Part shown: positions 15,952 through 56,450 of the stretch, piece after piece
How the letters are laid out: each line of letters opens with the position of its first letter
How positions within the stretch are numbered: position 1 is the stretch's first letter
NCBI GenBank assembly: GCA_951406725.2
Contig: OX597815.1
Span: forward strand, 139,314,001 to 139,378,000
Length of the DNA stretch: 64,000 nucleotides
Direction of reading: 5' to 3'
Source of the DNA: Octopus vulgaris
Taxonomy: Eukaryota
Made by a program: the position numbers and the translations under genes
The notes under the pieces: generated by a model
Seen by the model: only the letters and a program-made list of their open reading frames with translations
Database searches by the model: none
What the model was told of the DNA's origin: nothing

Positions 15952-16400
15952 GGAATTATGTACATTATTTACATTATGTACATTTGACGGATAAGTGTCC
16001 TCATCTTGTTTGCTGTTAACACAACGTTTCGGCTGATATACCCTCCAGCCTTCATCAGGTGTCTTGGGGAAATTTCTAACCTGGGTTCTTATTCCTAGGG
16101 TATTTGTTGATGTTATTATTATTATTATTATTATTATTATTATTATTATTATTATTATTATTATTATTATTATTATTATTATTATTATTATTATTATTAT
16201 TATTATTATTATTATTATTATTATTCAGGTCACTGCCTCGAATCGAACTTGGAATTTTGAGGTTAGTAGCCCGCGCTCTTAACCACTACGTCCTATCCCC
16301 GTGGGCATATGGCGTAGTGGTTAAGAGCTACTAACCCCCGCCGAAACGTTGTGTTAACAACAAACAAGATAAGGTTAAATATCCGTCAAATGTAAATAAT
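15952..16400. mobile_element. Head-to-head inverted tRNA-headed hammerhead element (SINE-like retrozyme)
   Basis: Left arm (minus): tRNA-like head 16225-16300, (AAT)n, HHR 16018-16063, 3' tail. Right arm (plus) 16302-16400 is an internally deleted inverted copy. Confidence 0.75.
16018..16063 (-). ncRNA. Minimal type I hammerhead ribozyme
   Basis: GACAC-CUGAUGA-A-GGCUG(10 nt)CAGCC-GAAAC-GUU-GUGUU: canonical core, 5-bp stems I and II, palindromic ACGU stem III. Confidence 0.8.
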
Positions 16401-19400
16401 ATACTTCAACTATGTTTTTCACTTTAGAAAATAGATCCTGAAGCGTATTCTGGATTCCTGTTATCGTTAAAAACTGATATGAACAAAAGTGTCTCAGATT
16501 TACATTCCTTTGAAGTACAGCTTTAGAGGATAGATCCAGTAAATTGTGGCGTTTCTGCTGCTGAAGAATAATAAATTCCATATCTATATTCAAAAAGAAT
16601 AAATTCCATAACGACAGTATTATGAATTAAAAGAGATGTATGATAAAGTTGTATGATAAACTGAATTCTGGTCATTAAAATACTATAAAACTCTATACCC
16701 AAGAGTATAGACCAAAACTGCCAAAATTATTATTTGTTCTTCGAATGTATATATATAGTTGAAACTGGAGTGAATGTAGAGAAGAAATTAATAAATTAAG
16801 AAACGGATTATATGAAAAGGGGTGATACAAAAAAAAAATTAATCTCGGTGACATTGAACTGAGCATTGCGTATTTAGAAAGGAAAAAATACAAAACAAGT
16901 CAAAACACCTATCTCAAGGATCTCATTAAATATAATACTCATCTATAAAATTTTTATCTCACTTTCTACTTAAGCAGGATGGACTATACGATCTGAAAAA
17001 AATTCTAACTGGACCCCACCTGCAATGTCATGCTGTTTATCTTGATATGAGATCAGCACGTCGCGCACATATGTTTGTACCTGGAGTACTCATATCAGAC
17101 GGGTAGTTATTATGGGTATATTGGGCTTTCGATATTTGTACATCAGTGTCACTTTCATGGCATACGTTGTTCTCTCACTTAATAATAATAATAATAATAA
17201 TAATAATAATAATAATAATAATAATAATAATAATAATAATAAAACAACGACAACAATGCATAAATAAATATAAAAGTTTTGAAATTCCCAACATATATAT
17301 ATACCATTATATATAACACAGTTAAATAAATGTACCATTCAAATATTAAATATTAAGTGGAATATATATATATCGTTGAAAGATCAAGGCACTGCACGCA
17401 ACACGAACCGCCCGCCCTCTCTCTCTCTCTTTCTCTCTCTCTTTCTCTCTCTCTGTATATATATATATATATATATATATAAATATCTAGATATAATGAT
17501 GACACTTCTTATACTACCTTTCTGTCTAGCCTGTGTATCTGCTTAATTCGTTCTGTCTGGTTACTATTTGCCTCTTCTATTTAATTATATAAACAATTAA
17601 AATATACTTATGCGGTTATATCTCGAACGAACTTCTCTTGAATAGTAAAAGGCGTCTTGACTACTTAATATATTGATTTAAGTTAAAGTAATAGTAGTAG
17701 CAGCTGCAATAGCAGTTGTAATATTATTAGTAATGTTAATATAGGTAAGATGATAGATGATACAGATATGTATTAATGAATAATGTATGTATATATGTGT
17801 GTGTGCGTGCATGTATGTATTGTGTGTAAGTTCGTGTGGGGATGGTGCGCGCGTGTGTGTATTAACAACAGTTATTGCAACTATTAAAATATTTACTTCT
17901 AACGATGAAACACGCGAAAGTGTTAATCTAATCTTCCTAACAATTAATTCAGTTTCAAAGTAAGCAGTAGATTTATTTGCCTTAAGATTTCAATGATGCT
18001 GTCCAGTCTGTGTCAAATTTAATCGCTGCAAATGTTTAATAAATGCCACGAATAATCGTTATGGATTACATATAATAGGTTGAAAGAGGTGGTGACTTGA
18101 TGAAAGTAACGTAGTTAACGAACAGTTTAATTTTTTATCACTCGCAAAGCATTCAGTCGTGTCTTAAGTTGTCTATCTATGGCGCTGTCTCATAGGACTT
18201 ACTGAGGGTGCAGCTACAACTCAACGGAGGTAGTTTTATGCGGTCACTTGACAAAGAGTAGCCAAGTTTCCATAAAATCACACTTCTCTTTTGAATTAAG
18301 ACACGTTAGATAACCTAGTCCATAGTCATAAAGAAAAGAACTGTTTCATTATTATATTTTTTCAAGTGTTTATCTTTTAAAAAGCCAGTCAACCAGAACG
18401 TTTGTTTTTCAAATTTCGAGAGATTGCAGTGTCGTCTAGCAGTGTATGCATCAAACCCGTGCCTCATGTTTATCATCTAGAACTCACAAAACTTTAGGTT
18501 CATCTACGAAAAATATGAAGACCTGACGACAGAATTAGAGAAATATATGTTTCGAAACGATAAGCACTGAATATATTGTCCTTAAGATGAGTGTAAACTT
18601 AAGATTTGAAAGTAGGAAAAATGTTATATTTTACTGTTCTTGTCAGATTTCGTTCTCTGCTTTGTTTTAGCCAAGCTAAATCCATGCTGTAACACCGCCA
18701 AATTGAATAGATCTGAGGGTTGCAATCAGGAATTGAAACTACATGGAGAATTTGGCTGACCAGGCATGATTCAATCTCTCTACTCTCTCGACTTTAGCTA
18801 TAAATATGATGAGTTATTAATTTCACTCAGATAAAGTAAATATAGCGAAACACCAAATGTCTAAATTTTATACTTGATTTTCCGTAATCTGTTTATTTAT
18901 AAATGGATGATTAATGTTATGTACTTCAAAGAGAGAAACCAGAGTGTTCATATCTTTAAGTATTGCAAAATCATAAAAAGATTTAAAGCTTTCAAATGGG
19001 AAACGAAAATTACTGTTGGACGCGATTCATCTGGAAACATTACGACAGCTTTCGGTTTCCAACTGATTTCTTATAAACATTTTATTGTTATTTATCTAAT
19101 GTCGATTCCATGTAGTCGTCTTCATGAAAGAAAAACGTCAAATCATTTTGTTATTTTTAAGTTATAAATGAAATCATTCGGTTTAAACATTTAAACATCT
19201 TTTTCTCTAAATAAAAACACGTAACTTTCTAAATGCATAAAATCTCATCTCATCTCATGAATTGTTGTCCCAGCATATACCAAACCGGGTCATGTGAAGT
19301 ATATGGGAAAATTATTTTTATTTTCAATTTAGTTTAGTTTATTTCATTGGAGTTTGTACGAAATAGAGCTGCAGGCATTAATAGAGTTGAGTGCACAGAG

Positions 19401-19596
19401 ACATATGTATTTACTAACTGGAGCGCTTTCTCCTCCTATCAATATCTCCTTCTCCTTCATCCTCTCTTTCTGTGTATATATATATATATGCACACACACA
19501 CATACATATATATATATATATATATATATATATATATATATATATATGTTGGTGAGTATAATAATAATAATGATGATGATAATGATAAAGTTTTCA

Positions 19597-55600: not shown

Positions 55601-55653
55601 CTAGTAATCCGTTACAGCACTTACCTACCGTACCTATATATATAATACATATT

Positions 55654-56450
55654 CTTTTACTATTTTACTTGTTTCAGTCATTTGACTGTGGCCATACTGG
55701 GGCACCTCCTTTAGCCGAACAAGTCGATCCCAAAACTTACTCTTTGTAAGCCTACTACTTATTTTATTAGTGTCTTTTGCCGAACCACTAAGTTACGGGT
55801 ACGTAAACTACCAATTTCAGTTGTCAAGCGATGGTGGGGGAACAAACACAGAGACACAAATGCACACACACACATACACACACACTCATATATATATATA
55901 TATATATATATATATATATATATATATATATATATATATATATATTTATATATATATACACATACACTCATATATATATATACACTCATATAAATATATA
56001 TCTGTAAATGTAATACGTGACAATTATTCGGCAGCCATGATAAAACTCCGAGTTTCGGATGCCGAGGTGGAAATCCACGCCGCCTTCTCTTCAGTTATAC
56101 GGCAATCGTAAAAATACCTCCGATGGTCGTATAACTGAAGAGATGGCTGGATGGATTTCCACCTCGGCATCCAAAACTCGGAGTTTTATCATGGCTGCCG
56201 AATAATTGTCACATATGACATTTACAGATAAATTCTTCTATTTACGTAATATAGATGTCTCTTTCACTCTTTTGTTGTCTTACCATTTTTATCAATATAT
56301 ATATATACGACGGGCATCTTTCAGTTTCCGTCTATCAAATCCACTCGCAAGGCTTGATCGGCTCGAGGCTATAGTAGATGACAGTTGCTCAAGGTGCAAT
56401 GTAGTGAGACTCGGAACCGTATGGTTGGGAAGCAAGCTTCGTACCACACG
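55654..56450 (-). mobile_element. SINE family A split by the palindromic HHR element
   Basis: Tail half 55654-55880; head half 56305-56450. Confidence 0.8.
56000..56229. repeat. 230-bp palindrome made of two head-to-head hammerhead units
   Basis: 56000-56108 is an inverted copy of 56121-56229. Left arm (minus) has AUAA-CUGAAGA..GAAAC-UCGGA-GUU-UUAU; right arm has AAAAC instead. Confidence 0.8.

Follow-up and report, generated by a model that had tools for sequence, protein, structure and literature searches.

Family A, a short non-coding repeat at 16 kb in the stretch of Octopus vulgaris DNA analysed here (64 kb in full, hereafter the window), is probably a tRNA-derived SINE mobilised by a Penelope-like element (PLE). 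A broader proposition, to which we give even chances, is that Octopus genomes hold a SINE with a PLE rather than a LINE as its autonomous partner, present at a copy number of tens of thousands or higher, composed of a Pol III tRNA head, (AAT)n and a PLE pseudo-LTR and inserting as head-to-head pairs, and that a second family spread after losing a conserved base of the hammerhead core, which would be natural evidence for a copying role of the PLE hammerhead region that does not involve cleavage. A search of the literature, with Repbase and Dfam outside the comparison, found no PLE-mobilised tRNA-derived SINE. Dispersed PLE-derived hammerheads are already known, and the rest of the finding is ordinary PLE debris.

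One target-site duplication encloses a tRNA-like head and a hammerhead end

The family A insertion consists of two arms joined head to head, with the following features.

15918–15928, forward strand: left copy of an 11-bp target-site duplication around the entire insertion (the 11-mer occurs in the window only at 15918 and 16403)
15929–15960, reverse strand: putative PLE-type "tail", a 3' extension of about 30 nt in the left arm only (arm alignment)
15961–16112, reverse strand: family A body and 3' end, with a canonical minimal hammerhead at 16023–16058 and an ACGU stem III (descriptor match)
16113–16225, reverse strand: internal (AAT)37 microsatellite that separates head from body (TRF, sequence)
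16226–16301, reverse strand: tRNA-like head, with Pol III box A from 16293 and box B 45 nt downstream (box scan)
16303–16404, forward strand: inverted second copy, internally deleted, with the head start (16303–16339) followed by the hammerhead 3' half and 3' end (16340–16404) (BLAST, alignment)
16403–16413, forward strand: right copy of the target-site duplication, overlapping the arm end by 2 nt

A single 11-bp duplication thus encloses both arms, head included; as a chance rate, a repeat of at least 11 nt occurred in 21 of 3000 random window pairs. Head is followed by end in sense orientation in both arms. The family A 3' end bears a PLE-type hammerhead, with the predicted cut between 16023 and 16022, and the inverted copy retains a half-hammerhead at 16340. 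The deletion junction of that copy is bridged by one contig of single-copy depth in a public DNA run. An inverted 5' copy, a one-sided tail, outward 3' ends and a minimal hammerhead are all present, the features of a PLE-type insertion; an inverted 5' copy with a tail of 30–40 nt is described for PLE insertions in PMC8557442, and the tail also in PMC11167929.

The assignment of the head as tRNA-like draws on several observations. The head was scanned with Pol III box A and box B consensus sequences, and the box pair is weak on its own, as a scan at 2 mismatches gave 0.51 matches per shuffled window. The right arm carries an exact box A, which is also the majority sequence of other copies, and the two box A mismatches of the 16-kb copy are minority letters among them. 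Rfam returned no tRNA match for the 16-kb head at E values up to 10, and by eye its tRNA stems are degenerate. Degenerate tRNA stems are common in SINE heads. The unit has no TTTT, as is the case for 239 of 1276 window segments. Its outer ends lie 346–819 nt from any (TA)5, and neither the head nor the A body accompanies the three further (TAA)n arrays of the window, at 17180, 50195 and 57788.

Family A in other copies

In public contigs, both the head and the hammerhead end of family A are very abundant under three species labels. Three DNA runs (organisms A, C and E) yielded 7416, 5524 and 6668 contigs covering family A, with a summed depth, which is not a copy number, of about 3–4 million for the end and 1.2–1.9 million for the head, compared with 19–53 for unique flank. 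The head/end depth ratio was 0.43, 0.37 and 0.45 across these runs, the ends exceeding the heads about 2.3-fold. The head-(AAT)n-body link is read only at the 16-kb locus, the contig comparison having omitted the (AAT)n array.

Among the 15 joints listed (of 42), 13 have the head start fused, at varied points, to a truncated end-piece in inverted orientation, with joint sides of 19–32 nt that mostly fall under a 30-nt caution threshold. Direct end-to-head tandems account for two of the 12 rows listed (of 58) that give the letters between pieces. Of 32 palindrome pieces listed, 24 extend at least 15 nt beyond the palindrome centre, and none has 31 nt on both sides. Loose ends lose their uniformity some 12 nt beyond 16290 and beyond 16400, indicating defined ends. 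The canonical hammerhead core was the loose-end majority in all four runs (agreement 0.77–0.85). A run guessed to be RNA is not taken as expression evidence. In the loose-end majorities listed for other copies, no 30-nt tail can be seen.

Searches beyond these runs were negative within their scope. Translations of the head-body link, themselves spurious, had no matches among proteins; a partner search found no coding PLE sharing the family A end, the sole protein match being an exonised copy; the family A and B DNA patterns had no match in metagenome, viral or prokaryote contigs; and prokaryote genomes, searched by single-protein locus, gave no match either.

Hammerhead motifs in the window

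In order to count hammerheads, a strict minimal type I descriptor was used, consisting of a core of CUG[A/U]NGA or UUGANAA, a stem II of at least 3 bp, GAAA, a palindromic stem III, UH and stem I. It matched seven loci.

16023–16058, reverse strand: hammerhead of family A
29585–29612, forward strand: hammerhead of family B copy 1
31316–31342, reverse strand: hammerhead of family C
33193–33220, forward strand: hammerhead of family B copy 2
39571–39604, forward strand: hammerhead of the coding PLE
42922–42949, reverse strand: hammerhead of family B copy 3
47381–47408, reverse strand: hammerhead of family B copy 4

Dinucleotide shuffles gave a mean of 0.06 matches, with at most one in 100 shuffles of the whole window and at most two in 100 shuffles in 500-nt blocks. 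The hammerhead motifs in the window are real, and they are PLE-type minimal hammerheads, as had been stated in the original prediction. That prediction, made from the sequence alone, had counted at least eight motifs plus a core-mutated one at 56135; the seven above stand, and the arms at 56040 and 56135 do not pass the descriptor. Only two of the seven cores, at 16 kb and 31.3 kb, are fully canonical, all four family B copies having CUGUNGA (A6-to-U) and the coding PLE UUGAUAA (U3-A8), and the prediction had missed the half-hammerhead at 16340, a family C stub at 47086–47194 and a possible motif at 54872. The stem III types it named (ACGU, ACAUGU and ACUC-G-GAGU) were recovered by the descriptor search; the short 3' tail it assigned to the motifs was not, the part beyond the predicted cleavage site measuring 60–100 nt in copies of families A, B and C.

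The motif at 54872 (54864–54912, forward strand) is a possible decayed hammerhead with CUGACGA...GAAA and broken stems. It belongs to the 17 loose matches obtained across the window, fails the strict descriptor, was excluded from the count and may be a chance match. No tandem array covers any hammerhead motif in the window. Minimum free energy folds of nine motifs had z-scores of -1.4 to +1.1, a measure that is uninformative for minimal hammerheads. Rfam gave no hammerhead family at 15900–16450 or among the 150 of 236 whole-window matches listed, which were set aside as microsatellite-driven microRNA noise. The 186 ARAGORN calls obtained at a relaxed threshold were discarded as spurious, and a bacterial promoter scan was not applicable to the Octopus host.

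Non-coding families B, C and D

Several non-coding hammerhead families are present, as originally proposed. Besides family A, the copies are as follows.

29521–29690, forward strand: family B copy 1, a divergent subfamily with core CUGUUGA, flanked by (TA)n and (CA)n
31198–31410, reverse strand: family C copy, related to B, with the canonical core CUGACGA (sequence comparison, descriptor match)
33134–33316, forward strand: family B copy 2, core CUGUAGA, with a 19-bp AT-rich direct repeat at 33115 and 33317
42828–43007, reverse strand: family B copy 3, core CUGUAGA (descriptor match)
47086–47194, reverse strand: family C 3' stub, 5'-truncated to a start 4 nt ahead of the predicted cut, with (TA)n runs on both sides
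47287–47487, reverse strand: family B copy 4, core CUGUCGA (descriptor match)
55996–56232, unstranded: family D, a head-to-head inverted pair with arms of about 110 nt and damaged hammerheads facing outward (self-BLAST, 92% over 109 nt)

Four of the five longer B and C copies begin near the same homologous point, 60–75 nt before the core. Family B copy 3 continues 5' into a C-rich stretch of 470 nt (43010–43480) that may be part of it. In family D, stem II is broken in the 56040 arm, whose core is canonical, and G12 is changed to A in the 56135 arm. T runs number four to six in B and C and one in each D arm. The box scan found no Pol III box pair in B, C or D, which appear to be derivatives of PLE ends without a Pol III head; the "SINE" label first applied to these repeats is best supported for family A, whose tRNA-like head had gone unseen. 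Families B, C and D and the coding PLE adjoin (TA)n or (CA)n. The earlier statement that most motifs abut (TA)n holds to that extent and fails for family A, and with it the idea of a shared (TA)n target preference.

The coding PLE

The one PLE open reading frame region in the window, with no second PLE ORF found there, lies at 35.7–39.7 kb.

35718–39706, forward strand: Neptune/Nematis-type PLE, dead as judged from its sequence, inserted in (TA)n (Pfam, motifs, protein match, tree)
36249–37781, forward strand: RT (Pfam RVT_1, E 5.6e-07)
37785–38594, forward strand: linker zinc motif and GIY-YIG (Pfam, E 6.1e-07)

The RT/GIY-YIG element was correctly recognised at the outset, and it carries the Neptune/Nematis linker. 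In the 37785–38594 frame, the CX2-5CxxC linker stands at residue 135 and a further CxxC at 179, with histidines downstream; Neptune and Nematis are characterised by a CX2-5CxxC linker and two cysteines inside GIY-YIG (CCHH) (PMC8557442). An in-frame TAA stands at 37782–37784, where the frame stays open in all 18 aligned relatives. The protein is 90% identical to an Octopus sinensis protein. The 3' region contains promoter-like boxes and the U3-A8 hammerhead with a 6-nt stem III, and (TA)n lies 1 and 13 nt from the element's ends. No duplicate of the 3' region (a second pseudo-LTR) was found in the window, making the element a monomer. An intact ORF and a partial tandem with a second pseudo-LTR are what an active helper would require. 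In a quick tree of 55 rows, which allows coarse grouping only, omits the 26 of 80 loci that lack a long RT frame and has no named Neptune or Nematis references, the coding PLE groups among linker-bearing loci.

No DNA similarity was found between the coding PLE and any non-coding family, or between any family and 80 related PLE loci. Among 13 related loci from other organisms, not all of them independent, an ACGU stem III was present in eight of ten linker-less and none of three linker-bearing loci (Fisher p 0.035). A 6-nt stem III occurs in the other two linker-less loci, and the linker-bearing relatives of the coding PLE share its 6-nt stem III. Given that the coding PLE and the non-coding families have no sequence in common, and that the 4-nt stem III of these families matches that of linker-less (Penelope/Poseidon-type) PLEs, the coding PLE is, on sequence grounds, probably not their helper, the role in which it had been cast.

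Comparison with known systems

The motifs resemble the minimal hammerheads known from the pseudo-LTRs of metazoan PLEs (Cervera and de la Pena 2014, PMC4209133), which also have an additional base ahead of G10.1, a stem III that is palindromic or missing, a short stem I and the U3-A8 variant, and likewise occur mostly as dispersed single motifs and close opposite-strand pairs. A Pol III head on such an end, as in family A, and a family with a fixed A6-to-U change, as in family B, are not described in the portion of that paper available to us. Non-LTR retrozymes (Cervera and de la Pena 2020, PMC7229834; Li et al. 2026, bioRxiv 10.64898/2026.07.22.740005) are also short non-coding animal hammerhead elements, proposed as non-autonomous PLE pseudo-LTR derivatives, and solo monomers occur. 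They form tandem arrays with a hammerhead per unit, those of invertebrates being canonical with circular RNA, whereas the window families are solo or inverted units with minimal motifs, and family A adds a tRNA-like head.

Schistosome Sm-alpha and Sj-alpha (review PMC6765202) similarly combine a Pol III-type promoter with a hammerhead that follows it, within a retroelement that is short, non-coding and present at high copy number. Their units are tandem and released by cleavage, whereas in family A the motif is of the minimal PLE type and the insertion has the geometry of a PLE, with an inverted 5' copy, a tail and 3' ends facing outward. The Sm-alpha and Sj-alpha hammerhead is a canonical one. 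Family A is short and very abundant, with a tRNA-like head, boxes A and B and a target-site duplication, as are tRNA-derived SINEs whose 3' tail comes from a LINE, among them octopus OK, OR1 and OR2 (PMC4758252). It differs from them in its PLE pseudo-LTR 3' end, internal microsatellite and head-to-head pairs, the comparison being with these SINEs as a class. Twhin is reportedly another octopus SINE name, from the 2015 genome paper. The coding PLE matches endonuclease-positive Neptune/Nematis PLEs (PMC8557442) in its RT, CX2-5CxxC linker, GIY-YIG with internal cysteines, 3' hammerhead and (TA)n target, and differs in being a monomer with no second pseudo-LTR and an in-frame stop.

Mobilisation and competing explanations

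The proposed origin of family A is that a 5'-truncated PLE end once inserted into the (AAT)n tail of a tRNA-like SINE. Pol III read-through of a unit without TTTT would then yield an RNA with both a promoter and the PLE binding or initiation region. The PLE protein would nick both strands of AT-rich DNA, and reverse transcription would start 60–95 nt past the hammerhead cleavage site; together, these steps could account for pairs joined head to head, for end-pieces that are truncated and inverted, and for a tail of 30 nt that is optional. Self-cleavage in monomers would probably be rare and dispensable for copying, so that the head would remain joined and a damaged core need not have stopped family B from amplifying. 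A Poseidon protein has been reported to cut and extend both strands, prefer ATT and initiate internally, with hammerhead cleavage unneeded (PMC11167929).

An unlikely account of the same data is that head and hammerhead end are independent repeats, an (AAT)n-tailed tRNA SINE and truncated PLE ends that recurrently insert in its tail or palindromic start, the 16-kb locus being a nested chimera. PLE endonucleases do prefer ATT and microsatellites (PMC8557442, PMC11167929), the excess of ends over heads fits separate repeats, and head-start joints in both orientations are also expected from a palindromic hot spot. This account, however, needs two PLE insertions at 16 kb together with a chance 11-bp flanking repeat (21/3000), and it has to accommodate the head-then-end order in both arms and a head/end ratio that is similar across three species labels.

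A further reading, quite improbable, reduces the non-coding families, B, C and D in particular, to 5'-truncated coding PLE ends, each copied from a full-length template, with no trans mobilisation. It leaves the head inside the family A duplication unexplained; confined to B, C and D, the same reading falls just short of even odds. The 5' prolongation of B copy 3 into a C-rich stretch, the short 3' pieces formed by the C stub and D arms, the T runs and lack of Pol III boxes, and the finding in PMC4209133 that minimal hammerheads are mostly dispersed singly, probably having arisen from truncated PLEs, and also lie as close opposite-strand pairs all point that way, while the start point shared by four of five longer B and C copies, one of them inside a 19-bp duplication, and the lack of a second PLE ORF in the window point the other. 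The original prediction of active retrozyme-type families, giving linear or circular RNAs by dimeric self-cleavage and mobilised by local-type Neptune PLEs with a common (TA)n target, now has very little probability. Palindromic stems III could pair between copies (computed duplexes of -3.7 to -17.5 kcal/mol), B, C, D and the coding PLE do adjoin (TA)n or (CA)n, and retrozymes have been proposed as PLE derivatives (PMC7229834). Against this, hammerhead units are never in direct tandem in the window, the A6-to-U change affects every B copy (activity is low in a natural A6C hammerhead variant; PMC3088659), the local PLE is interrupted by a stop codon and has another stem III class and no common sequence, and the outer ends of family A are away from (TA)n. 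The retrozyme label is not supported, and mobilisation of a tRNA-derived SINE by a PLE is retained as the probable explanation for family A.

Implications

SINEs have been described as parasites of LINEs, whose 3' tail they borrow. If the PLE-mobilised reading is true, a SINE using the telomerase-related PLE machinery would be a combination of host and parasite new to retroelements. Part of the largely unclassified octopus SINE fraction would be accounted for as well, SINEs making up 11.6% of O. vulgaris, with 893 of 900 recently active SINE families unclassified (PMC13282606). An RNA of 260–380 nt would, in that case, delimit the minimal cis signal needed by the PLE protein, and the comparison of family A, with its intact core, to family B, with its A6-to-U change, offers a direct test of the purpose of the PLE hammerhead.

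Organisation of the family A locus

15918-16413, read on the minus strand: family A, with an inverted second copy (right arm) at 16303-16404
29521, 33134, 42828 and 47287: the four copies of family B, B1-B4
35718-39706, plus strand: the coding Penelope-like element (PLE)

On the minus strand, family A runs from a head with boxes A and B, 45 nt apart and matched to the usual Pol III consensus, through (AAT)37, a 54-nt body and a canonical minimal hammerhead to about 60 nt and then about 30 nt more. As this copy has no Rfam tRNA match, the head is termed tRNA-like by its boxes and their spacing. 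The unit lacks TTTT, as do 239 of 1276 window segments. A second copy lies head-to-head with the first, its head start joined through a deletion to the hammerhead 3' half and 3' end, with the last 30 nt absent. The whole locus is bracketed by an 11-mer found in the window at 15918 and 16403 only; among 3000 random pairs, 21 contained a repeat at least as long. On the minus strand (15928-16113), an open frame of 62 codons spans the entire body and tail; it may be left over from a partner ORF or have arisen by chance, and its only longer protein match is an exonised copy (P0121).

Other copies of family A

We compared 16202-16500 with public contigs, from three DNA runs on organisms A, C and E and from one guessed RNA run, obtaining 7416, 5524 and 6668 aligned contigs from the former and 1212 from the latter. 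The end (the hammerhead-bearing 3' part) reached peak summed depths of 3.0, 3.2 and 4.1 million and the head 1.3, 1.2 and 1.9 million, against values of 53, 19 and 44 for the unique flank. As summed depth does not count copies, the raw ratios, 2x10^4 to 2x10^5, hold to an order of magnitude only. In each of the four runs, loose ends at 16340 yield one and the same hammerhead, intact, with an agreement of 0.77-0.85, and the majority letters of the other copies give an exact box A and a palindromic centre, the head-to-head junction. Heterogeneity begins just beyond the head start and just beyond the 3' end. Among the 15 joints listed (42 in total), 13 connect the start of the head with a truncated end-piece in inverted orientation, at positions from 16348 to 16379, in all three DNA runs and with joint sides of only 19-32 nt, and a direct end-to-head tandem appears in two of the 12 between-letter joints listed. 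Of the 32 pieces listed, the longest of about 21,000, 24 reach 15-27 nt beyond the centre, and no centre piece spans it under a 31-nt bridging rule. The contig comparison omitted the repeat array, so that only at this locus is the head seen joined to the body through (AAT)n. Loose ends at 16307 continue into a recurrent different sequence after the palindrome centre (39 contigs in sequencing run X15, 7 in the guessed RNA run, X21), which points to a subfamily or to another element joined to the start of the head.

All three species labels show the right arm running unbroken into its flank, and in X15 the deletion junction is spanned by one contig of single-copy depth; the locus is thus old rather than a product of assembly. 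In Octopus sinensis, one gene model opens with an exonised copy of A, 86% alike across 36 residues.

Hammerheads and families B, C and D

A descriptor was written for minimal type I hammerheads, with the usual core consensus, which is consistent with the description in PMC4209133; it was broadened after the motifs had been inspected, allowing U at position 6 and a U3-A8 pair, and the same broad form was run on shuffles. The hammerhead set of the original prediction stands in that seven loci match, far above the shuffle mean of 0.06 (two sets of 100), but only the motifs at 16023-16058 and 31316-31342 are canonical, and the two outward-facing arms of family D at 56 kb (about 110 nt each, 92% alike) are damaged, with stem II broken in one and G12 changed to A in the other. 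All four B cores read CUGUNGA, with U6 fixed and U, A, A and C at position 7; a natural A6C variant is described in a passage of PMC3088659 as having low activity. The coding element's hammerhead is U3-A8, a variant that PMC4209133 describes from schistosome PLEs.

Families B (four copies, 74-95% alike) and C (two copies) are related to each other and lack Pol III boxes; their sense strand is T-rich, they stop at (TA)n or (CA)n, and four of the five longer copies share an approximate start point. B2 is flanked by a 19-bp AT-rich direct repeat that has no other occurrence in the window. B3 leads on into a further 470 nt with a C content of 42%, which counts against a fixed length. This C-rich stretch (43010-43480, 42% C, minus strand), directly 5' of B3, has no PLE protein match and may be a longer form of the family. 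B, C and D are PLE-end derivatives. Dispersed and inverted minimal hammerheads are already known (PMC4209133, in part), PMC6685494 refers to such elements of the Penelope type, short and non-autonomous, in butterflies, and bioRxiv 10.64898/2026.07.22.740005 argues that retrozymes originate from PLEs. The label "retrozyme" itself is not supported here, as the tandem arrangement that defines it occurs in none of families A-D.

Multi-copy short repeats without hammerheads, several adjoining hammerhead families, lie at 5783-6167, 8078-8534, 29823-30115, 30938-31197, 33790-34322, 45338-46431, 55635-55944 and 56288-57515, and are probably ordinary octopus SINEs. Broken PIF1-like helicase fragments (Pfam PIF1, Pif1_2B) at 59399-60461 are probably a Helitron remnant.

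The coding element and the choice of helper

The RT frame (36300-37781) is 90% identical to an O. sinensis protein, with further matches in Argonauta, O. bimaculoides and bivalves, which identifies the host as an Octopus. RT and GIY-YIG domains, a CX4CxxC linker, an internal CxxC and (TA)n on both sides assign the element to the Neptune/Nematis type, following the definition in PMC8557442. It is dead: a TAA at 37782-37784 breaks a motif that all 18 aligned relatives carry uninterrupted, and no second pseudo-LTR is present. The 5' region (35718-36330) is A/C-rich and contains a duplication of 137 bp and an open frame of 159 codons that has no Pfam match. By its sequence, the 3' region (38764-39228) looks like a conserved pseudo-LTR promoter: it holds six of the window's ten plus-strand TGACGTC (CRE-like) boxes, five ATTGG boxes and TATAAAA at 39222, and CRE-like words cluster before the hammerhead in three of the four closest relatives (L004, L006, L008) and in none of nine more distant loci.

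Descriptor-positive hammerheads occur in 15 of 80 related loci, and the endonuclease was scored in 13 of these, two being left out in which no GIY-YIG motif was found. Stem III is a 6-nt palindrome in all three linker-bearing loci, as in the local element, and ACGU in eight of ten linker-less loci (Fisher p 0.035, or 0.045 with two near-duplicates merged; 13 loci). The local element groups with the linker-bearing loci in a quick tree of 55 rows. As stem III is ACGU in families A, B and C, a Penelope/Poseidon-type helper appears more likely for them than the local element, though the sample is small and drawn from other organisms. Mobilisation in trans by a Neptune-type PLE such as the local one, as originally predicted, is not supported: the local element is probably not the helper, being inactive, sharing no sequence between its 3' region and families A-D, and having a stem III of the linker-bearing 6-nt class rather than ACGU. 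Among related coding loci, L066 has an inverted hammerhead/pseudo-LTR pair (3886, minus; 6037, plus) and L046 and L049 have direct pairs, the same geometries as in family A.

A proposed origin for family A

The part of PMC11167929 that describes the Poseidon protein reports that it cuts and extends both DNA strands with a preference for ATT, begins reverse transcription at two internal sites, which define the tail, and copies dead-hammerhead RNA equally well. Applied here, two-strand cutting and extension would yield pairs placed head to head, their 3' ends facing outward, the two initiation sites would yield a one-sided tail, the head would stay attached, and B could have spread despite U6. 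Family A itself would have arisen when a PLE end landed in the (AAT)n tail of a SINE. Measured from the core AUG, its shared end is at 95 nt and its tail end at 126 nt, distances comparable to Poseidon initiation 111-118 nt into its ORF; a partner ORF for family A was not found. Family A is probably a PLE-mobilised SINE, and the main rival account, an independent SINE repeatedly hit by PLE ends, seems to us unlikely.

No octopus hammerheads, and no SINE with a PLE partner, were found in the literature searched; Repbase, Dfam, Lunse et al., the 2015 genome paper and the O. vulgaris Zenodo library lay outside it, and family A may already be present or named in these. The 2026 repeat annotation of O. 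vulgaris gives 11.6% SINE and 6.83% PLE (PMC13282606); no mention of ribozymes was noticed in the text covered, and a search of its supplement returned no matches. The nearest precedent of family A is a schistosome Pol III hammerhead repeat, described in part of PMC6765202. In its original framing, the prediction restates mostly known biology and names the wrong helper; what goes beyond it is family A, as a probable PLE-mobilised SINE.
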